From an uncultured Pseudomonadales bacterium (GTDB taxonomy: Bacteria > Pseudomonadota > Gammaproteobacteria > Pseudomonadales > Pseudohongiellaceae), in the NCBI GenBank assembly GCA_947259995.1, contig CAMYOK010000002.1, forward strand, positions 224,881 through 288,880: DNA of 64,000 nt, written 5' to 3'. The notes under the pieces are model-generated. The model saw only the letters and a program-made list of their open reading frames with translations. It searched no databases and was not told the DNA's origin. The first letter of the stretch is position 1; each line of letters opens with the position of its first letter. Below, in pieces: positions 24,833-34,993 of the stretch. The position numbers were made by a program, and so were the translations under genes.

Positions 24833-25591
24833 ATGACGTATTGTGTGGCAATCGCCGTCGATGCAGGCATGGTCTTTTGCTCAGATTCCCGCACGAATGC
24901 AGGCATAGATCAGGTTAGCACTTATAGCAAAATGTATCGCTTTGGAGTCGACGGGCAGCGCCAATTCGTCATCCTTTCGGCGGGCAATCTTGCCACTACT
25001 CAAGCGACAATCTCCCAAATAAAGCGGGACATAAAAGAGCGGGCGACCACAAGTTTATTAACGGTGGAATCCCTAGCGGATGCCGCCGATTACTTAGGTG
25101 ATGTGTCACTGGCCCAACAAGAGAAACATGCAAAGACAGGGGTTTCTTTCGAGGCCAGTTTTATCATTGGCGGTCAAATAGCTAACAGTAAGCATCGCAT
25201 CATGTTGGTCTACCCACAGGGCAACCATATCACTAGCTCTAAAGACACGCCCTATCTGCAAATTGGCGAGAGCAAGTACGGCAAACCCATTCTCGACCGC
25301 ATTCTCACCCCAGAGCTCAATCTAGACACCTGCGCACTCTGCGCCATGGTCTCGATGGACTCGACAATGCGCAGTAATTTGAGTGTCGGCCCCCCCATTG
25401 AAACTCTCGTATACCGAACTGACACCATGACCTTAATTGAGCCATTGCGCTTCGATGAGGACAGTGAGTTTTTGCGGGAATTAAAGCGTAGTTGGGATCA
25501 GCGACTCAAGGATGCATTTCGACAAATGCCCCCTTTCGCCTGGGCATCTAGTTGGGATAAATCCGCTGATGAACAAAACGGAGCTTATTAA
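24833..25591 (+). CDS. Anbu (ancestral beta-subunit) proteasome-homologue peptidase
   Basis: 252 aa. The N-terminus is MTYCVAIAVDAGMVFCSDSRTNAG, with Thr right after the initiator Met. Length and motifs match the bacterial proteasome-type protease (COG3484). The neighbouring ATP-grasp, alpha-E and transglutaminase genes fit the Anbu context. Confidence 0.85.
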   Translation: MTYCVAIAVDAGMVFCSDSRTNAGIDQVSTYSKMYRFGVDGQRQFVILSAGNLATTQATISQIKRDIKERATTSLLTVESLADAADYLGDVSLAQQEKHAKTGVSFEASFIIGGQIANSKHRIMLVYPQGNHITSSKDTPYLQIGESKYGKPILDRILTPELNLDTCALCAMVSMDSTMRSNLSVGPPIETLVYRTDTMTLIEPLRFDEDSEFLRELKRSWDQRLKDAFRQMPPFAWASSWDKSADEQNGAY

Positions 25592-26597
25592 GCGTCGTTT
25601 CTGAGAGCACAAACGGATAAGCATCTTGCAGGCCCATACTGCGATTTAACGCGTTCATCGCTACCGAAACACTATCCCAGTTCTTTAAGCACAACTCAAT
25701 ATCGGGCGCGACGTTGGGTGTTATCAGTTTCTCTTGTAATAAACCTACCTGCCAAGCCGTCTCTAAGCAGTCGACCATATGCAGGTAATGCGCCCAACAT
25801 TCGGCCCAATCTTCATGCGGGTGCATTTGCGCATAGGCACTCACTTTGTCGTTATCAGACGCGCTCGCGGGGCGCTCGTAATGCTCCTTCATCGCCTCTT
25901 CGTAGTCAGCCCGCTCATCGCCAAACAATTCTCTAAACTGCTCTATCGCTGCAGGCGTATTGACGACTTTTTCGAAATAATAATGCCCACTCTCATGGCG
26001 AAAATGCCCGAGCAATGTTCTGTATGATTCACCGAGACTCTGCCTCGCTTGCTCGCGATTTACACCATCGGCTTCTGCCAAGTTCACCGTGATCAAGCCT
26101 TCAAGGTGGCCTGTAAGCACATGCTCTTCTTCCACGTTCGGGTTTGAGCGCTGATCTTCAAGAAACGAGAAGGCAAGCCCAGACTCATTGCTCGCTTTGC
26201 TTTCAACTGGCAGCCCTAGTGCTAGCAAGGTGTAGATCAAGCGTCTTTTCGCCGCCTCCATACGCCCCCACCATTTACGCCTTTGTGAGGCACGATAACT
26301 GGCTCCTACTTTTGGCACAGTATCGTTTAGGGAACAGGCAAGACAAAAGCTGTCTTGGGAGTTCACTACCAACCAATTGCACACGTGGAAGTCGGTATCA
26401 TTGCTGCAACGGCGATAAAGATTGCCGTGATCAACATCGCGCCATTGCCCTGTGGCCTCATCCGAATCGGGGCTTGAGGGTTCTATCGCCAGAAGTTCGG
26501 CGCGCAACGGATCGTAACCCAGCAGGCGCTGGCAGGCATTACAAGTCGTGTTTTCGAAAAACAGACTTTGCCCGCATGTACACTGAAAATCTCTCAT
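25548..26597 (-). CDS. Zinc-ribbon plus putative zinc metallopeptidase (Peptidase_Mx-like, HExxH)
   Basis: 349 aa. The N-terminus is MRDFQCTCGQSLFFENTTCNACQRLLGYDP (zinc ribbon), and HESGH is present in LLGHFRHESGHYYF. It is the last gene of the three-gene minus-strand operon with the ATP-grasp and alpha-E genes. Confidence 0.75.
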   Translation of the reverse strand: MRDFQCTCGQSLFFENTTCNACQRLLGYDPLRAELLAIEPSSPDSDEATGQWRDVDHGNLYRRCSNDTDFHVCNWLVVNSQDSFCLACSLNDTVPKVGASYRASQRRKWWGRMEAAKRRLIYTLLALGLPVESKASNESGLAFSFLEDQRSNPNVEEEHVLTGHLEGLITVNLAEADGVNREQARQSLGESYRTLLGHFRHESGHYYFEKVVNTPAAIEQFRELFGDERADYEEAMKEHYERPASASDNDKVSAYAQMHPHEDWAECWAHYLHMVDCLETAWQVGLLQEKLITPNVAPDIELCLKNWDSVSVAMNALNRSMGLQDAYPFVLSETTLNKLRFVHQRIYPN

Positions 26598-26613
26598 GCA
26601 CAGTACTCGCTAA

Positions 26614-27588
26614 TCAAGCAGATTGTTGTTGCTCACTGACAACGGGGAGGAACCATGTCTCAGTAATACTGGCATGGATGTTCGCAAACTCAACTTGCAG
26701 CTCATCGATGTACTCAAGAAGGCCGCTGTCTAGCAGTTCAGCAATATTTGCGTCGTCCACTAATGCAACAGCTTCAGACACTTGCCTTAAAGCCGCCTCA
26801 TTGTTTGGCAAAAACTTCAAACAAGCTTCTAATTTGCCAAGGCAATGTCTAACGGCTCTTGGGAACTGCGAGTCTTGCAACAGGAAGGTCACTACATCTT
26901 CGCCATTGACTCGATCGAGCACATGCTGACGATACATTTGGTAAGCACTTAGGGAATGCAACACACTCATCCAAATCATATTCGCAAATGGGCGTGTTGA
27001 CTGCTCAGCCGTAGCACCAGTTTGGGTGAGGCTAGGCAATAGAGTGATAGAACCAACATCGACGATACGGGTGGTCATGTCTGCACGTTCTAAGCTGCGA
27101 GCAATACGCAAAAAATTGTAGCCACTGTTGTGACTCATGGCACCGGCTAACAGGCCAGCGATTTGCTGGCAGTGCGCAATGATGTCTTGCAGCAACTGAT
27201 GCCGAGGCCCTCGTGCCGTGGCCTTGCCCATACTCTCTTTGGTAAAGAGGTAGAGCTTATTGATCTGTTCCCAAGCTTCAGTCGGTATAATTTCACGAGT
27301 GGTTCGAGCGTTCTCACGGGCTAGCCCAAGAGAGCTGATAATCGATGAATAGTTATTCTGATCGGACAATAAAAACCTGTTCACCGAACGCTCATCAGTG
27401 TTCTGATAAGTCTTGCTGAACTCGTCTTGACTGCCTGTTATTTCAACCAGAGTATGCCAGCCTACCTTCGCTCCGCGTGGCAAGTCCAAGAGTAAATTCG
27501 AGTACACTGTCAGCAAACGCGCTGTATTCTCGGTTCGCTCTAAATAACGACCTAACCAATATATACGCTCAGCAACTCGAGATAACAT
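26614..27588 (-). CDS. Alpha-E domain protein (COG2307)
   Basis: 324 aa. The N-terminus MLSRVAERIYWLGRYLERTENTARLL is the hallmark of alpha-E domain proteins that partner circularly permuted ATP-grasp enzymes. Confidence 0.85.
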   Translation of the reverse strand: MLSRVAERIYWLGRYLERTENTARLLTVYSNLLLDLPRGAKVGWHTLVEITGSQDEFSKTYQNTDERSVNRFLLSDQNNYSSIISSLGLARENARTTREIIPTEAWEQINKLYLFTKESMGKATARGPRHQLLQDIIAHCQQIAGLLAGAMSHNSGYNFLRIARSLERADMTTRIVDVGSITLLPSLTQTGATAEQSTRPFANMIWMSVLHSLSAYQMYRQHVLDRVNGEDVVTFLLQDSQFPRAVRHCLGKLEACLKFLPNNEAALRQVSEAVALVDDANIAELLDSGLLEYIDELQVEFANIHASITETWFLPVVSEQQQSA

Positions 27589-27591
27589 GGC

Positions 27592-29040
27592 TCAGCGCTC
27601 CTCATCCGAAACGATCCAAGTGTCTTTACTTCCGCCACCTTGTGAAGAGTTCACGATATAGGAGCCCTTCACCATAGCCACGCGAGTTAAGCCGCCTGGA
27701 GTCACATAGGAGTCACGCCCCTGTAGGACAAAGGGCCGCAAATCGATGTGCCGGGGCTCTGCGCCGCGGTCGACTAATACCGGGGCGGTGGACAATGAAA
27801 TAAGTGGTTGCGCCATATAATTGCGCGGGTTGGCTTTGATTTTCTTGGCAAAGTCGGCGCGCTCTTTTTTGCTAGCTTGTGGCCCCATTAACATGCCATA
27901 GCCCCCAGATTCGTTCGCAGGCTTTACGACCAATTTGTCGAGGTTGGCCAATACATGTTGGCATTGCTTTTCATCGACACAAAGATAACTCGGGACGTTC
28001 TCTAGCAATGGCTCTTCGCCAAGATAGTATTTGATCATGGCAGGCACGTAGGTGTAGATCACTTTGTCATCGGCCACACCAGCCCCTGGAGCGTTGGCTA
28101 GCGCCACATTGCCTTTCAACCAGGCGCGCATAAGCCCTGGCACACCAAGGGCGGAATCGGGATTAAAGACTTCAGGGTCAAGGAACAAATCATCGATGCG
28201 GCGATAGATTACGTCGACTCGAGAAAGCCCATTAATGGTCCGCATGTAGACGCAATCATCCTCAACGACCAGGTCACCCCCCTCTACTAACTCGGCCCCC
28301 ATACGCTGGGCAAGAAATGAGTGTTCAAAATAGGCTGAGTTATAAATGCCAGGCGTCAATACGACCACTTCGGGATAATCTAAAGGTCTAGGCGAAATCG
28401 CCGCCAAGGTATCGAACAAATGGGAGGTGTATTCAGTGATCGGGAGAATATTGTAATTCTCAAAAAGTTCTGGAAAGACGCGTTTGGTCACTTTACGGTT
28501 TTCCAGCATATAAGACACGCCAGAGGGAACTCGTAAATTATCCTCTAAAACATAGAACTGACCATTGGTGTCCCGAATGAGATCGGTGCCACAAATATGT
28601 GCCCAGACGCCATGGCGAGGCTTCATCCCTATGCACTCTTTACGGAAATTCACCGATTTGGCTATCAACTCAGCAGGAACGACCTTGTCTTTGAGTATCT
28701 TCTGGTCATTGTAGATGTCGTCGATAAAACAGTTTAAAGCACGTAGACGTTGTTCCAGTCCTTGACTTGTCTTCTGCCATTGTGTTTCTGTGATGATTCG
28801 AGGAATAATATCAAACGGCCACTCCCGATCGATGTTGCCCGCTTCACTATAAACGGTAAACGAGATACCCATCGCCTTAATGGCGAGTTCAGCAGCTGTC
28901 TTTCGTTGTTGAAGATCATCACTTTTTAGCGAAGCGAGATAGCGAGCCAGAATTCGACCTGACTTTCGGGGGTACCCGGGCGAACTAATCAGTTCGTCAT
29001 AGAAGGCGCCGGGGTTATATGATTTCCAGTCAATTTGCAT
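27592..29040 (-). CDS. Circularly permuted type-2 ATP-grasp (amidoligase) protein (COG2308)
   Basis: 482 aa. Its stop is 3 nt from the alpha-E start. Sequence segments (NYNILPITEY..., VVKPANESGGYGMLMGP, GGLTRVA) match this family as I remember it. Confidence 0.85.
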   Translation of the reverse strand: MQIDWKSYNPGAFYDELISSPGYPRKSGRILARYLASLKSDDLQQRKTAAELAIKAMGISFTVYSEAGNIDREWPFDIIPRIITETQWQKTSQGLEQRLRALNCFIDDIYNDQKILKDKVVPAELIAKSVNFRKECIGMKPRHGVWAHICGTDLIRDTNGQFYVLEDNLRVPSGVSYMLENRKVTKRVFPELFENYNILPITEYTSHLFDTLAAISPRPLDYPEVVVLTPGIYNSAYFEHSFLAQRMGAELVEGGDLVVEDDCVYMRTINGLSRVDVIYRRIDDLFLDPEVFNPDSALGVPGLMRAWLKGNVALANAPGAGVADDKVIYTYVPAMIKYYLGEEPLLENVPSYLCVDEKQCQHVLANLDKLVVKPANESGGYGMLMGPQASKKERADFAKKIKANPRNYMAQPLISLSTAPVLVDRGAEPRHIDLRPFVLQGRDSYVTPGGLTRVAMVKGSYIVNSSQGGGSKDTWIVSDEER

Positions 29041-29059
29041 ATATGAGCAACATTACCTT

Positions 29060-32000
29060 ATGACAATTAAAGTAGCAATACACCACCAGACAACGTATCA
29101 ATTTGATCGCTTGGTGGAAATTTTGCCCCATGTTGTTCGCTTGCGTCCCGCACCACATTGTCGCACTCCTATCGATTCTTATTCGCTTAAGATCACACCA
29201 GATGAGCATTTTATTAATTGGCAGCAGGACCCGTTCTCCAATCATTTAGCTCGTTTGGTTTTTCCTGAAAAAGCCAAAGAGCTATCTATCACTGTCGAGC
29301 TAATTGCCGACATGACAGTTATCAATCCGTTCGACTTTTTTGTGGAAGATAGCGCTCAACATTTTCCCTTCAAGTACGATGCGCAACTCGCCAAAGACTT
29401 AGCTCCCTACCTAGAAGTGAAAGAGTCTGGCGCTGCCATGAAGAAATGGCTTAAGGGCGTCAATCAAACTAAGCAACCTATCGTGACCTTCCTGGTGGCC
29501 GAAAACAGCAGAACGCAACAAGCAATCAATTACGTGATTCGCATGGAGCCCGGGGTACAATCTTGCGAGACAACCCTGACAAGCACTTACGGCTCATGTC
29601 GCGACAGTGCTTGGCTGTTTGTACAAACTTTGCGGCACATGGGACTTGCGGCACGGTTTGCCTCTGGCTATTTAGTCCAACTCACGGCTGACGTGCGCTC
29701 TTTAGACGGCCCAACCGGCCCGACAGAAGACTTTACTGATTTGCATGCATGGACCGAGGTCTATATTCCCGGCGCCGGTTGGATTGGCCTTGACCCAACC
29801 TCCGGTCTATTTGCCGCCGAGGGGCATATCCCTCTTGCTTGTACTCCCGACCCAGTGAGTGCCGCCCCAATTACCGGTAGCACTGGGGTTTGTGAGGTAA
29901 AATTCCTACACGAGAATTCGGTCTCACGCATTCACGAAGACCCACGTGTCACCAAACCCTACAGCACCGAACAATGGCGCGAGATTGACGCACTTGGTCA
30001 CAAGGTCGACGAGGACTTACAAGAGCACGACGTGCGCTTAACAGTGGGCGGCGAACCCACATTCATCTCTATCGATGACATGGAAAGCGCACAGTGGAAC
30101 ACTGCCGCTTTGGGCAAAGACAAACGTCGATTAGCAGGTGAGTTATTGTTGTCGTTGAAACAACATTACGCCCCGGAAGGACTCCTGCACATAGGCCAAG
30201 GCAAATGGTACCCCGGCGAGCCATTGCCCCGCTGGGCGTTGGGCCTGTTCTGGCGCACCGATGGCAAACCACTTTGGCACAATGCCAAGCTATTCGCAGA
30301 CGAACGCACACATGGCGCAGCCAATACACGTCTCGCCGCTAACTTCATCAGCACTCTGGCCCAAAAGCTGCGTTTGAATCCGCGCTATGTAATGCCCGCA
30401 TTCGAAGACAAAGCTTTCTATCTAAAACGCGAGTCAGAATTGCCCGCTAATGTTTCCCTATGGGATAGCAAGGTCGTCGACCCACTAGAGGCCGCGCGCA
30501 TTAAAAAGATTTTCTCACAAGGTTTGGACAAAGAGAGTGGCTATGTTTTACCGCTGTCCTCCACTCGCAAAGAAGACGCAACGCATTGGCTAAGTTGTCG
30601 CTGGTTTTTCCGTAAAGAACGTCTCACTTTGATCCCAGGTGACTCGCCCGCAGGTTACAGGCTGCCTCTTGAAAGCCTACCCTGGGAAAAACCTGACACC
30701 AATGATGAAGAACACGGCATAGACCCATTTTCTGCCCGAGAAGAGTTAGCCTACCCTCTCGACTTAGAAGATGATGCTGAGGCTTTGGAAATAACCCAAG
30801 CAGAGGATGGGCGCATCTTCCATACAGCACTTTGCGTTGAAGTGCGTGACGGGCGTTTATATTTGTTCTTACCTCCGCAAACAGATCTCGAGCGTTATGT
30901 TGAGCTCATTGCAGCCATTGAAGCGACGGCGGAGAAGCTCACCTGCCCTATCATCATCGAAGGCTATGAACCGCCGAAAGACCCCCGCTTGCAAAAGTTG
31001 ATGATCACCCCTGACCCCGGCGTCATCGAGGTCAATGTGCAACCCTCGAAGAGCTGGCCAGAGTTAACCTCTCTGGCACAAACGCTCTACGAGCAAGCCC
31101 GACAGCAACGCTTGGGCACCGATAAGTTTATGCTCGATGGCCAGCACACTGGCACCGGTGGTGGCAATCATGTAACCCTCGGCGCAGCAAAGCCCGAAGA
31201 TAGCCCGTTCTTGCGGCGTCCTGATGTCCTAGCAAGCCTTATACGTTACTGGCAAAACCATCCAAGTCTTTCGTATTTGTTCTCTGGGCAATTTATAGGC
31301 CCAACGAGCCAAGCTCCCCGCGTCGATGAGGCGCGCGATGATAATCTTTACGAGCTTGAAATAGCGCTGCAGCAATTGGACAGTGAAGACACCAAGCAGG
31401 TCTGGCTTGTTGACAGAATCCTGCGCAATTTCCTAGTCGATCTCACAGGAAACACCCACCGCGCTGAGTTCTGTATCGACAAATTATATTCGCCCGACAG
31501 CGCTAGCGGGCGCCTAGGGATACTCGAGTTTCGCAATTTTGAGATGCCACCTCATTGGCAAATGAGCGCCCTGCAGGTCTTGTTGATTCGCTCTTTAGTG
31601 GCGCATTTTTGGCAGACACCCTATACACGCCCACTGATCAATTGGGGCACCGAATTACATGACAGATTTATGCTCCCGCATTTCGTCTGGGAAGACCTAG
31701 CTTGGGTCACCAAGGATCTCAATGATGCGGGCTATCCATTTGAATTAGATTGGTTTGCTCCGTTTCAAGAGTTTCGCTTCCCTTACTACGGTTCTATTCA
31801 TGCGGCGGGGATCCAGCTTGACGTGCATCGGGCTATTGAGCCATGGCATGTATTGGGCGAGGAGTCGAGCGGCCAAGGCACTGCACGCTACGTCGACTCA
31901 TCGGTCGAACGTTTGCAGATTCGCGCGCGCAATTTGACTGGCAATCGCTTTATCATCACTTGCAATGGTCGCAAAGTGCCAATGCGCAGCACAGGCACGG

Positions 32001-32332
32001 AAGGCGAGTTTGTCGGAGGTGTCCGCTATAAAGCCTGGGCACCATGGTCTGCATTGCACCCAACTATCAATGTACATTCGCCATTAGTTATCGACATCGT
32101 TGACACTCACCATAAGCGCTCCCTTGGTGGCTGCACCTACCATGTCTCACATCCTGGCGGCAGGAATTATGACACCTTCCCCGTCAATGCAAACGAGGCA
32201 GAAGCTCGACGTGTCGCGCGGTTCTGGCAACATGGCCATAGCCAAGGTGAAATGGATTTAGACCTAAGCGAACCACACAGCGCGCACCCTTATACCCTAG
32301 ACATGCGTTACAATCACCGACCTAAAAAATAG
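29060..32332 (+). CDS. Large transglutaminase-family protein (Bact_transglu_N, transglutaminase core and DUF2126 putative amidoligase region)
   Basis: 1090 aa. The N-terminus is MTIKVAIHHQTTYQFDRLVEILPHVVRLRPAPH. The transglutaminase catalytic region is GSCRDSAWLFVQTLRHMGLAARFASGY...DLHAWTEVYIPGAGWIGLDPT (Cys-His-Asp). A long C-terminal extension is typical of COG4196-type proteins. Confidence 0.85.
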   Translation: MTIKVAIHHQTTYQFDRLVEILPHVVRLRPAPHCRTPIDSYSLKITPDEHFINWQQDPFSNHLARLVFPEKAKELSITVELIADMTVINPFDFFVEDSAQHFPFKYDAQLAKDLAPYLEVKESGAAMKKWLKGVNQTKQPIVTFLVAENSRTQQAINYVIRMEPGVQSCETTLTSTYGSCRDSAWLFVQTLRHMGLAARFASGYLVQLTADVRSLDGPTGPTEDFTDLHAWTEVYIPGAGWIGLDPTSGLFAAEGHIPLACTPDPVSAAPITGSTGVCEVKFLHENSVSRIHEDPRVTKPYSTEQWREIDALGHKVDEDLQEHDVRLTVGGEPTFISIDDMESAQWNTAALGKDKRRLAGELLLSLKQHYAPEGLLHIGQGKWYPGEPLPRWALGLFWRTDGKPLWHNAKLFADERTHGAANTRLAANFISTLAQKLRLNPRYVMPAFEDKAFYLKRESELPANVSLWDSKVVDPLEAARIKKIFSQGLDKESGYVLPLSSTRKEDATHWLSCRWFFRKERLTLIPGDSPAGYRLPLESLPWEKPDTNDEEHGIDPFSAREELAYPLDLEDDAEALEITQAEDGRIFHTALCVEVRDGRLYLFLPPQTDLERYVELIAAIEATAEKLTCPIIIEGYEPPKDPRLQKLMITPDPGVIEVNVQPSKSWPELTSLAQTLYEQARQQRLGTDKFMLDGQHTGTGGGNHVTLGAAKPEDSPFLRRPDVLASLIRYWQNHPSLSYLFSGQFIGPTSQAPRVDEARDDNLYELEIALQQLDSEDTKQVWLVDRILRNFLVDLTGNTHRAEFCIDKLYSPDSASGRLGILEFRNFEMPPHWQMSALQVLLIRSLVAHFWQTPYTRPLINWGTELHDRFMLPHFVWEDLAWVTKDLNDAGYPFELDWFAPFQEFRFPYYGSIHAAGIQLDVHRAIEPWHVLGEESSGQGTARYVDSSVERLQIRARNLTGNRFIITCNGRKVPMRSTGTEGEFVGGVRYKAWAPWSALHPTINVHSPLVIDIVDTHHKRSLGGCTYHVSHPGGRNYDTFPVNANEAEARRVARFWQHGHSQGEMDLDLSEPHSAHPYTLDMRYNHRPKK

Positions 32333-32345
32333 GCTCTCTATGGGG

Positions 32346-33578
32346 CTAGGCGTACACCCTAGCCAGGAATGTCGCAAGCCCCCATAGGTAAGCTGCCGAA
32401 AGCAGCACTGCCAATATTTTCTCCAATACATTAGATTTGTATATGGACTGTTCTTTGGCGAAATTGAGATACAAAGCCATACAGAGTGCACCAGTAATAA
32501 AGCCTCCTACGTGGCTGTAGGAGTCAATGCCATCAACGAAGTACTCAACGGCTATCTGCAATCCTATTATCGCAAAAACCATCCTATTCGAACGCTGACT
32601 GACCAACCCGGGCAGATACTTCGTAAACTTCACCACGCAATACGCACCAAAAAGCCCAAAAATCCCTCCGGAGGCACCAATCACGTATTCGTGCGGGGAT
32701 AGATATAAGCTAGTGATTGATCCAACAAGAGCTGAGACAAATAGGATAATGAGAAATCGAAAGGTATCTTGAAGACGTAGAATAGGGTCTGCCATAACAG
32801 CAAACGAGAGTAAATTCGTAAGTAAATGTAATAAATTAAAATGAAGGAAGAAAGTAGAAGTCAACCTATATAAATCGGCGTTACCTTGCGTACTTTTCGT
32901 CAACGCTCCTAACTCTAAGACGGAAAAGTACTCACTTTCACTAAAGTGGTCTAGAAAAATAAGTATCCCGCTCAGAATAATAGTGAAAGAAAACTGAACC
33001 AAGTGAACTTGAAATCTATTAGTGTGTGCGACTATAACTTTCGATAAACTTACTTTCTCTTCATTTGCCTTAACCGCTCTCGAGACAATTTTTTCAAATT
33101 CCGAAAAATCATCAAAACTTTCAAACTTTTCCCTCTCTATAACACGCATACCTCCATCAAATTTACCAATCACAATGGCAAGCACTTCGCCCCTGAAACT
33201 AATTCTCTCTAGACTGAACATTTCATGAAATAGCAAAACCCTCTTCCAAAAATAAAAATATGGATACTCTATTCGATCGCCAAAAACCGTTATCCCTATC
33301 TGTACTCTCTCCATAGATTTGTAGAGAAAATAGAGCATAAGCACCACAATAAACATAGATGCGAAGTATAGATACACAACATAAAGATCACTTTGCAGCT
33401 CAGAAATCCAGCTCATATACATGACTAGAAAAACTAGTACAAACAACAGAAATATGCTTCGAATATTCTGAAATTTTACTCTCGCAGGCCTTGGAAAAAA
33501 TATTTTTCGATCTTGAAGAGAATTCGGAAACTTTTTCTCGTTTGATGATTCAAGAGCCTCTAAACTAGGATCACCCAT
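32346..33578 (-). CDS. Rhomboid-family intramembrane serine protease with a ~190 aa N-terminal extension (two TM helices plus a soluble domain)
   Basis: 410 aa. The rhomboid motifs are intact: FLHFNLLHLLTN (H..N of TM2), GASGGIFGLFGA (catalytic Ser) and SHVGGFITGA (catalytic His). The gene is markedly AT-rich compared with its flanks. Confidence 0.8.
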   Translation of the reverse strand: MGDPSLEALESSNEKKFPNSLQDRKIFFPRPARVKFQNIRSIFLLFVLVFLVMYMSWISELQSDLYVVYLYFASMFIVVLMLYFLYKSMERVQIGITVFGDRIEYPYFYFWKRVLLFHEMFSLERISFRGEVLAIVIGKFDGGMRVIEREKFESFDDFSEFEKIVSRAVKANEEKVSLSKVIVAHTNRFQVHLVQFSFTIILSGILIFLDHFSESEYFSVLELGALTKSTQGNADLYRLTSTFFLHFNLLHLLTNLLSFAVMADPILRLQDTFRFLIILFVSALVGSITSLYLSPHEYVIGASGGIFGLFGAYCVVKFTKYLPGLVSQRSNRMVFAIIGLQIAVEYFVDGIDSYSHVGGFITGALCMALYLNFAKEQSIYKSNVLEKILAVLLSAAYLWGLATFLARVYA

Positions 33579-33653
33579 GTGCTATCCCCAAGGACGAGAT
33601 AACGAACTATTGCTACGCTATCTCGCCAAATTATCAACGCACTAAAATATTTT

Positions 33654-33872
33654 TCATTCTCTCATTAGTGCCACACCGCCTGCGAGCGCAAATGCTGCCA
33701 TTGCGCCTACAGCCAGTGGCGAAACTGATACAGCCAAGCCAACACCAACAACCCCCCAAGAGGGGCCGAAAGCTGCTGACCCTATCGCCATACTCGCGGT
33801 AAAGAAGGGAATCGAATCTAACATTCGTCCACCACTCACCTCATCAATCTCAACTACGCTTAATTCACGCAT
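33654..33872 (-). CDS. Microcin/class II bacteriocin-like precursor peptide with a double-glycine leader
   Basis: 72 aa. The leader MRELSVVEIDEVSGG matches the GG-leader consensus (compare the ColV leader MRTLTLNELDSVSGG, from memory). The 57 aa core is Gly/Ala/Val-rich and hydrophobic. A strong SD (AAGGAG) lies 7 nt upstream of the ATG. It lies 75 nt upstream of the rhomboid gene on the same strand. Confidence 0.65.
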   Translation of the reverse strand: MRELSVVEIDEVSGGRMLDSIPFFTASMAIGSAAFGPSWGVVGVGLAVSVSPLAVGAMAAFALAGGVALMRE

Positions 33873-34111
33873 ACTAGTCTCCTTGAATATTGCTCAAAAT
33901 TTATTCCTTTAAATTGGTTTGCGAGCCCGCCAATGTTTAGCTGAGCCGTCTGACGTCTCAGATTGCTCAGCACAATTTAAATTTAGGACAGGAATAGGAA
34001 TCTCGCCATTAAAAACTGGCAAATTTTGCGGAGAAAAATGAGGGGTTTAGACCCGGACTTCGCGAAGGATTTGCGTCGTCCGGGAGCTAGAGCTTGGATA
34101 TTGCTTAGTTT

Positions 34112-34993
34112 TTATTCACTTCGTTGCAGGGCAGCGATGCGTTCACTCAACGGAGGATGAGACATAAACAGCTTAGAGATGCCGCTAGCACCACGATTGC
34201 TGATACCGAAGGCGACCAATTCATCGGGCATTTGCGTGGCTTGGCCTTGTTGCAATCTTTGTAGGGCGGCAATCATATTTTGCTTGCCTGCAAGAGAGGC
34301 ACCGCCAGCATCGGCACGGTATTCGCGTTGACGGCTAAACCACATCACGATGGTCGAGGCGAGGAAGCCGAGCACCAGCTCGGCAATAATGCTGGTAATC
34401 CAGAATGCCGGCCCGTGGCCCCGCTCAGTCTTGAACACTACTCTGTCTATAAAATGCCCAATCACACGCGAGAAGAAGATAACAAAAGTGTTCACGACAC
34501 CCTGAATCAGGGTTAGCGTCACCATGTCGCCGTTTGCAACATGCGTTACTTCGTGGGCTAAAACGGCCTCGGCTTCGTTCCTATTCATGCTTTGCAAGAG
34601 CCCAGAGCTAACTGCCACCAAAGACTTGTTTCGGCTCGCGCCAGTGGCAAAGGCATTGACCTGCGGTGAGTTAAAAATCGCCACTTCAGGCATGCCTATG
34701 CCAGCCTTTTGCGCCTGTGCGCGAACAGTATCCACCAGCCACTGCTCTGTAGAGTTCTTAGGCTGCGTGATCACCTGCGCACCGGTTGAGCGTTTAGCAA
34801 TCCATTTCGAAATTGCCAATGAAATAAAGGCTCCGCCAAAACCGAACACGGCAGAGAAAATCAACAGATTATTCAGATCTAAACCCGCTCCTTGTTCATC
34901 AAGGATACGTTCTACTCCCAATAGACGCAGAGTAATACTCAGCACCACAATAATGGCTAGGTTAGTCATTAAAAACAGAGCAACTCGTTTCAT
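34112..34993 (-). CDS. htpX: Membrane zinc metalloprotease HtpX
   Basis: 293 aa. Has the [11 protein letters not shown] (HExxH) motif, four TM helices, and full-length resemblance to HtpX. Confidence 0.95.

Follow-up and report, generated by a model that had tools for sequence, protein, structure and literature searches.

Why should a gene for a small export-type peptide stand directly upstream of a gene for an intramembrane protease? The question is raised by a locus from an uncultured Pseudomonadales bacterium of the Pseudohongiellaceae (assembly GCA_947259995.1, contig CAMYOK010000002.1, positions 224,881 to 288,880). The window, by which we mean this whole stretch of 64,000 nucleotides (nt), encodes on its minus strand a 72-amino-acid (aa) precursor with a double-glycine (GG) leader and, starting 75 nt past the stop codon of the peptide gene, a 410-aa rhomboid protease. 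A preliminary description of this DNA had offered three roles for the rhomboid: maturation of the peptide, immunity to it, and degradation of an incoming toxin. Of these, immunity or degradation agrees better with what we found. We give an even chance to the reading that the rhomboid serves as immunity factor in a class II microcin-type module and would act by cleaving the membrane-inserted peptide, with toxicity, cleavage and immunity all predicted from sequence. This reading builds on the anatomy of the pair, its conservation, its co-occurrence in other lineages, the equivalence of the slot in which the rhomboid gene stands, and the intact catalytic residues, each of which is observed directly.

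Is the peptide gene real? The open reading frame (ORF) at 33654-33872 (minus strand) had been picked out in the preliminary description, and direct reading confirms it. Its translation, MRELSVVEIDEVSGGRMLDS...ALMRE, begins with the GG leader MRELSVVEIDEVSGG (codons 1-15, 33828-33872) and continues in a 57-aa hydrophobic core rich in Gly, Ala and Val (33657-33827), which forms two hydrophobic segments with many glycine zippers. The strong Shine-Dalgarno sequence claimed for it is present as AAGGAG at 33879-33884, at a spacing of 6 nt from the ATG and not 7, and reads AAGGAGA in all four aligned relatives. At 72 aa the product lies within the size range of class II microcins (Gram-negative, at most 150 aa). 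The leader, R2-E-L4-x9-G14-G15, is an exact fit to signal Motif 1, M..R-x-[IL]-x9-G[GAS], which is based on the full set of ten verified class II microcins (PMC12219008). By itself this motif is weak, as 2 of the 1584 candidate small ORFs of the window match it and about one would be expected by chance; the case for the peptide gene thus rests on conservation and context.

A first search returned eight clusters of homologues, each exactly 72 aa long and 53-68% identical, in which the leader consensus MRELSxVExxEVSGG is nearly invariant. Between syntenic genomes the gene has an overall dN/dS of 0.18-0.28, and for the leader dN is 0-0.09 against a dS of 0.1-2.5. The conservation and purifying selection on which the preliminary description had staked its proposal are thus present, together with a constant length. 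A profile search expanded the family to 78 clusters, whose hosts include cultured Massilia species, Alteromonadaceae and Rheinheimera. UniRef names some of the Massilia members 'Bacteriocin', and the closest named relatives are metagenome-assembled genomes (MAGs) of Gammaproteobacteria. A metagenome scan with the peptide profile, a leader-only pattern, found window-clade loci only. Membership in a known peptide family was considered and rejected. Searches against bacteriocin and microcin models, as proposed in the preliminary description, gave no Pfam or NCBIfam match above threshold. Against the Pfam MccV family (PF17508, cutoff 27 bits) the window peptide has no match and its relatives score 12.6-17.2 bits, and no NCBIfam leader-model match was reported for the window peptide. 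In an hhalign comparison with MccV, whose core sequence was entered by hand, the leader alone aligns and the core has no detectable homology. Judged by its sequence, the core forms a separate family. These data support the peptide as a genuine, selected precursor of the GG-leader microcin or bacteriocin type, with the sequence-level characters of class II microcins.

The second gene (32346-33578, minus strand) encodes what its sequence identifies as a true rhomboid with predicted proteolytic activity. Residues 235-371 match the Pfam Rhomboid model PF01694 (E=5e-25, 88.7 bits against a cutoff of 22.6) within a protease core that comprises aa 191-410 and the stop codon (32346-33008), and the GASGG, SHVGG and H..N motifs named in the preliminary description are all found. 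The catalytic Ser303 (GASGG, codon at 32670-32672), His356 (SHVGG, codon at 32511-32513) and H246/H251/N255 in the second transmembrane (TM) helix of the rhomboid fold are invariant in 13 rhomboid homologues. This invariance of the catalytic Ser, His and Asn suggests that proteolysis is probably needed. In Foldseek the core gives weak matches to GlpG and iRhom. Two better known identities were rejected. The GlpG models TIGR04239 and NF008155 score 48.7 and 44.8 bits against cutoffs of 250 and 335, and the N-terminal domain differs; the rhombosortase model TIGR03902 scores 38.4 bits against a cutoff of 84. The GlyGly-CTERM model does not match the window peptide, in which just six residues follow G65-G66. 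A plasmid search found no DNA match to the locus and, at the protein level, generic rhomboid cores only.

Upstream of its core the rhomboid carries an N-terminal module (aa 1-190, 33009-33578), which had been described as two TM helices plus a soluble domain; hydropathy and AlphaFold2 bear this out. The helices lie at about aa 31-61 and 65-89, and in the AlphaFold2 model of the module alone (pLDDT 75), which places them at aa 33-61 and 65-89, they are followed by seven strands and a long C-terminal helix. The structure prediction that the preliminary description had called for yields a fold like that of pleckstrin homology (PH) domains, with the putative PH-like cytoplasmic domain at aa 96-173 (33060-33293). 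When the module model was compared with the PDB by Foldseek, PH domains made up 50 of the 50 best matches, with E-values of only 0.004-0.4. The Pfam bPH models do not match the module at E up to 10, and a search of the PDB with its sequence gave insignificant, TM-driven matches only. On the strength of the model, the module is PH-like in fold and architecture only, not by sequence family. It is extremely rare: among 1.84 billion proteins, phmmer found 11 representatives, most of them rhomboids some 390-410 aa long, and the rest a few sequences of 117-199 aa that are fragments or possibly standalone forms. Two proteins, P0138 (174 aa) and P0139 (153 aa), match the module and apparently have no rhomboid domain; they could be standalone modules or truncated gene calls. 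The two-TM-PH (2TM-PH) module is present in every peptide-linked rhomboid, and no other part of the protein evolves as fast, with 37% identity to the relative at locus L001 versus 71% for the core.

Do the two genes belong together? Since a window should contain about one match to the leader motif by chance, which makes the motif weak by itself, a fortuitous neighbourhood of a small ORF and a rhomboid gene had to be considered. Homologous pairs occur in at least eight lineages of Gamma- and Betaproteobacteria, in unrelated surroundings. They were found in the window clade, L007, L008, L014 (Ca. Eutrophocola salsuginis), L095/96 (Massilia eurypsychrophila), L099/100 and L107 (M. horti), and a remnant of the peptide gene is found in L009-L011. 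The distant extended rhomboids are 25-34% identical, and each has a homologous peptide gene with a GG or GA leader immediately upstream; the neighbourhood survey suggested by the preliminary description thus yields the recurrent short leader ORFs it had looked for. A scan of GTDB genomes with the rhomboid profile retrieved mostly generic rhomboids, with L013 and L014 as the sole true relatives, and the peptide is absent from all 78 of the generic rhomboid loci. Given this co-occurrence, and the purifying selection on the peptide, chance adjacency is effectively refuted and we regard it as scarcely credible. The comparison of loci supports a functional tie between the peptide and the extended rhomboid.

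One such tie would be maturation, with the rhomboid processing the precursor and replacing the C39 domain of a PCAT (an ABC transporter that contains a peptidase) in genomes without one. The rhomboid might remove the GG leader once the acidic N-terminal tail has flipped into the periplasm, in the way that TatA is trimmed by AarA, or it might make a second, activating cut. Rhomboids prefer a hydrophobic residue at P4, a small one at P1 and a hydrophobic one at P2' (PMC2941825), and in 9 of 11 family members the GG site fits this rule (P4 Val, P1 Gly, P2' Met, Phe, Ile or Val). The tight adjacency and the intact catalytic residues also agree with this explanation, as does a leader that is invariant in the window clade and L014 though no PCAT is nearby. 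That no C39-type ABC exporter is encoded in the 64-kb window, as the preliminary description had stated, is correct: tblastn with two PCATs and two membrane fusion proteins (MFPs) gave Walker-type noise only, and neither an ABC nor a C39 domain came up when the remaining large ORFs of the window were scanned with Pfam. The statement does not extend to the system, however, because PCAT and MFP genes adjoin the pair in five of the eight rhomboid-linked lineages (L007, L008, L095/96, L099/100 and L107), and the catalytic C39 motif QTE..ECGLAC can be read directly in the PCATs of L007 and L008. The gene order is peptide-rhomboid-MFP-PCAT in L008 and L095/96, and L007 and L107 have a divergent PCAT-MFP pair beside peptide and rhomboid. 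In L099/L100 (6821-9123 and 10568-11980) the module is interrupted: fragments of DDE_Tnp_1 and DDE_3 transposases surround the peptide gene, and a glutamine synthetase gene lies between the rhomboid gene and the MFP-PCAT genes. The presence of PCATs in five of eight lineages suggests that the system as a whole is PCAT-dependent, and it can be explained without removal of the leader by the rhomboid.

Members of the peptide family are also found together with a PCAT where there is no rhomboid. PCAT and MFP genes stand beside family peptides in L101 and L093. L093/94 and L101 have two tandem peptides followed by a single-TM protein of 93-94 aa, plus a PCAT, and in L097, likewise without a rhomboid, the peptide lies between single-TM proteins of 95 aa. 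With the same type of leader exported in the absence of a rhomboid, and with intact C39 PCATs beside the pair elsewhere, leader removal does not need the rhomboid, which is thus no obligatory maturase. The strongly constrained leader of the loci without a PCAT points to a leader-recognising partner, for which a PCAT encoded at another place in the genome is the simplest candidate. Furthermore, a rhomboid cut would free the peptide into the periplasm or membrane only, with no route across the outer membrane, and an intact rhomboid is retained beside a decayed peptide gene, as described below. Together these points make a maturation protease unlikely. As an addition to an immunity role, removal of the GG leader by the rhomboid in PCAT-less genomes such as this one seems to us very doubtful.

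The loci without a rhomboid also say something about its place. Since single-TM proteins of 93-95 aa stand in the same position, the rhomboid fills the slot of small, immunity-like membrane proteins. The idea that these proteins are homologues of its N-terminal module, which would have given the rhomboid a fusion origin, was rejected, as they are not homologous. In L009-L011 an intact extended rhomboid, P0014, stands beside an ORF (L009:69-335, L010:162-428, L011:3-92) that retains the C-terminal half of the peptide gene (..AVGVGAAFATASLAVIAMLALTGYAGYQAFS) and has lost the GG leader. This ORF is probably a decayed toxin gene next to a retained partner, and a rhomboid retained while the peptide gene decays is what one would expect to see if it were an orphan immunity gene. 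One of the rhomboid-free loci lies in a larger setting: positions 7600-16200 of L093 (Alteromonadaceae MAG GCA_004369005.1) form a multi-peptide island with the two tandem family peptides, at least five other short ORFs with GG or GA leaders (e.g., MKSLNLYEIKAVSGA...), a PCAT, a radical-SAM/SPASM enzyme, an ATP-grasp protein and an MFP. The island may be a mixed locus for bacteriocins and ribosomally synthesised, post-translationally modified peptides.

How would a rhomboid confer immunity? In the sequence of events that we envisage, a PCAT would remove the leader and export the peptide, the PCAT and MFP genes being unlinked or lost in the window's genome. The mature 57-aa glycine-zipper peptide would enter the inner membrane from its periplasmic face and cause damage there. 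The active site of the rhomboid would open to the periplasmic leaflet, as is known of GlpG. The rhomboid core could then capture the membrane-embedded peptide laterally and cut it at small-residue sites, and the cut would protect the producer or an immune non-producer. The fast-evolving 2TM-PH module probably supplies specificity or docking. In this fuller version, which we put somewhat short of even, the protein is a rhomboid immunity protein whose co-evolving 2TM-PH module recognises the cognate microcin, which is then destroyed by proteolysis within the membrane. Several conserved sites in the peptide core fit the rhomboid recognition rule. The fast divergence of the pair next to slowly evolving flanks, to which we return below, is typical of toxin-immunity pairs.

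A number of points weigh against assigning immunity to the rhomboid. The fit of the peptide core to the recognition rule does not discriminate in a peptide so rich in Gly and Ala, and it is from sequence and context that we infer antibacterial activity, cleavage and immunity. At 395-452 aa, the rhomboids are far larger than any of the verified microcin immunity proteins, which have at most 216 aa. No exporter is encoded near the pair in the window clade (31-33 kb on each side) or in L014 (10 kb on each side), yet the leader is very strongly constrained, and a PCAT acting in trans has to be assumed. The argument from the peptide remnant is drawn from one lineage (L009-L011), and rapid divergence would also fit relaxed constraint.

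The N-terminal module and the exporter context bear on another possibility, namely that the protein is an accessory of export or quality control: the 2TM-PH module would hand over or chaperone the hydrophobic precursor together with PCAT and MFP, and the rhomboid would clear, from the inside, precursor mis-inserted in the producer's own membrane. The model for this is provided by PHb2 proteins of the YdbS/YdbT type (DdE/DdF, LnqC/D, aureocin Orf7/8), in which, as in the module here, a PH-like domain on the cytoplasmic side comes after two TM helices, and which are needed for handling a hydrophobic bacteriocin in leaderless-bacteriocin clusters. Export of enterocin DD14 depends on DdE and DdF, whose deletion stops export and leaves the producer poisoned by its own bacteriocin; 2TM-PH proteins are also a recurrent feature of bacteriocin clusters (PMC8657885). 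Bacterial rhomboids are known to remove orphan membrane proteins (PMC7232013). The PH-like fold and the YdbS-type layout of the module thus speak for an accessory role. However, the module shares no sequence similarity with these proteins and falls outside the bPH sequence families; it is fused to a rhomboid, in Proteobacteria, and is encoded beside a leader-bearing peptide; and the pair persists without a nearby exporter in the window and L014. We consider an accessory role rather improbable. It also overlaps with the immunity model, as self-protection from inside, and is a variant of it more than a distinct alternative.

The peptide might instead not be a toxin at all. It could be a secreted signal, with the PCAT serving in pheromone export, or a small membrane subunit that is switched by rhomboid cleavage, as TatA is by AarA in Providencia. 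PCATs export signalling GG-peptides too (PMC7018657); the antibacterial activity of the peptide is a prediction, and in the window clade the pair has a stable seat in a housekeeping region. Yet no sensor kinase or regulator is linked to the pair at any locus examined, and a core of 57 aa that combines glycine zippers with two hydrophobic segments is what membrane-active bacteriocins typically have and pheromones do not. The peptide has relatives in multi-bacteriocin islands with small immunity-like TM proteins, and the core evolves fast. A non-toxin function is, in our judgement, decidedly improbable.

Immunity remains the role that we prefer for the rhomboid, and the comparison with known systems shows how far it has precedent. 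The operons of microcin S (mcsS-mcsI-mcsA-mcsB) and microcin V (cvaC-cvi-cvaA-cvaB) share with the pair a Gram-negative host, a 15-aa GG leader and a Gly/Ala-rich core; the leader MRELSVVEIDEVSGG is identical at 9 of 15 positions to the MccV leader MRTLTLNELDSVSGG (quoted in PMC12219008). Homologous loci have the four-gene order of class IIa microcin operons, including MFP and C39-ABC transporter, and the order peptide-rhomboid-MFP-PCAT of L008 and L095/96 matches mcsS-mcsI-mcsA-mcsB. The window locus, unlike these operons, has no exporter genes. Microcin immunity genes are adjacent, small and membrane-located (PMC12219008); where class IIa microcins have a membrane protein of at most 216 aa, the immunity slot is filled here by a rhomboid of 395-452 aa with a 2TM-PH module. 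McsI, the immunity protein of MccS, belongs to the CAAX/CPBP family of intramembrane proteases (PMC3316575). Like the rhomboid, such Abi/CPBP proteins (McsI and those of Gram-positive class II loci) are polytopic members of a protease superfamily encoded beside a GG-leader gene, and self-immunity is shown for McsI and proposed for the others. Their fold is unrelated, their putative glutamate- or metallo-type chemistry differs from the Ser-His type of rhomboids, and they have no PH-like module, so that the likeness is one of analogy only. CAAX/CPBP-family immunity is nonetheless the nearest precedent for immunity by a rhomboid, and the system is not categorically new.

Among rhomboids, AarA of Providencia stuartii trims a short N-terminal extension from the small membrane protein TatA, and the GG site here fits the same cut rule. 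However, aarA and tatA are not adjacent, co-evolving genes like the pair in the window, the peptide here, unlike TatA, is a GG-leader export peptide linked to PCATs, and the rhomboid here has the additional 2TM-PH module. The rhombosortase/GlyGly-CTERM system resembles the pair in combining a specialised rhomboid with a Gly-rich signal next to a TM segment, and it too was found through genomic co-occurrence. There the signal is a C-terminal GG followed by a TM segment and a basic tail, whereas here it is an N-terminal export leader, and rhombosortase has many dispersed targets in place of one dedicated, adjacent candidate substrate gene. The preliminary description had considered the pairing of microcin and rhomboid to be an undescribed architecture, and in agreement with this our full-text literature searches found no paper linking rhomboids to microcins, bacteriocin immunity or GG leaders.

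How long has the pair been at this site? The preliminary description took it for a recently acquired, AT-rich islet. We rejected recent horizontal acquisition for the window clade: the pair occupies the same site in L001-L006, L012, L013, L102-L103 and L105, between a cluster of transglutaminase, ATP-grasp and Alpha-E genes on one side and htpX or a MATCAP gene on the other, and synonymous sites are saturated in flanks and pair alike. Saturated synonymous divergence at a shared site implies that the pair is long resident. The proteins encoded in the flanks are 86-99% identical to those of the window, with omega values of 0.007-0.05; in the same comparison the peptide is 65% and the rhomboid 55% identical overall, with a dN of 0.39-0.45 for the rhomboid. 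At the protein level the pair thus evolves 10-40 times faster than its neighbours, where, with dS saturated, fast evolution is not separable from replacement by divergent alleles.

The low GC content is real for the rhomboid gene and does not extend to the peptide gene, which at a GC content of 0.525 is not AT-rich. The N-terminal half and the core of the rhomboid gene have a GC content of 0.35 and 0.42 versus 0.51-0.52 in the flanking genes, and a GC content at third codon positions (GC3) of 0.33 and 0.45 versus about 0.53 in the surroundings. Compared with its host, the gene is rich in AT in each of the lineages, in GC3 too (window, L001, L004, L007, L008 and L095/96), and despite long residence it seems not to ameliorate. 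Its persistently low GC content possibly reflects the residues it encodes (46% F/I/L/K/N/Y/M) or selection that keeps expression low or silenced. In Massilia, where the whole module has a GC3 of 0.43-0.59 versus 0.85-0.88 in the host, composition marks the module as clearly foreign.

The surroundings of the pair in the window are those of a chromosome, and Pfam scans of its other large ORFs returned ordinary chromosomal genes. In the window and L001, htpX (Peptidase_M48; 34112-34993 in the window) lies directly 5' of the peptide gene. It is absent at the same position in the L004/L005/L013 lineage (about 9733-10000 in L004/L005/L006), so the junction beside the pair is variable. On the other side, the cluster at 24833-32332 encodes a proteasome-type subunit (PF00227, weak), a zinc-ribbon/Peptidase_Mx protein, an Alpha-E protein, a circularly permuted ATP-grasp protein and a transglutaminase/DUF2126 protein of 1090 aa. 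Purifying selection on it is very strong, with omega values of about 0.01-0.02; the Peptidase_Mx gene (dN 0.076) is the exception. We take the cluster to resemble the 'Anbu' peptide-modification operon.

Two non-coding elements accompany the pair, both on the minus strand. A block 5' of the peptide gene (33885-34010), a candidate promoter/operator or 5'-untranslated region (5'-UTR), contains long invariant runs among the window, L001, L004 and L105 despite the saturation of synonymous sites. It includes the invariant box GGCGGGCTCGCA and a hairpin, GCTGAGC...GCTCAGC (33940-33971), in which double changes preserve three pairs according to RNAalifold, in an alignment of four sequences only. The block is possibly an operator or a regulatory element of the 5'-UTR. 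A search of the locus against Rfam gave no match, and the predictions of a promoter scan were not above shuffled expectation. The second element is a stem-loop in the 75-nt spacer (33593-33627; dG -25.1 kcal/mol, z = -2.6) that has no U-tract. It is kept in L001 and absent in the L004/L105 lineage, in which the start of the rhomboid ORF lies 18 codons further 5'. The stem-loop may set the ratio of peptide to rhomboid, as an attenuator or a processing site.

The natural substrates and roles of bacterial rhomboids are still poorly characterised (PMC2941825, PMC8778405). In the pair described here the candidate substrate is the product of a co-evolving adjacent gene, which would be a rare case in which the substrate of a rhomboid can be guessed from the genome. 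We consider it probable that the locus presents a genomically defined rhomboid-substrate pair together with a new enzymatic mechanism of immunity. Whether and with what specificity the peptide is cleaved, and what the PH-like module does, can be tested directly, including in the cultured species Massilia eurypsychrophila and M. horti. For genome mining, the pair implies that immunity genes need not be small, and the current rules, which look for adjacent membrane proteins of at most 216 aa (PMC12219008), would miss the rhomboid. If the reading is true, this would be the first family of bacterial rhomboids with a natural substrate encoded right next to it and a new enzymatic class of bacteriocin immunity determinant, and class II microcin-type systems would extend to marine Gammaproteobacteria and to Oxalobacteraceae.

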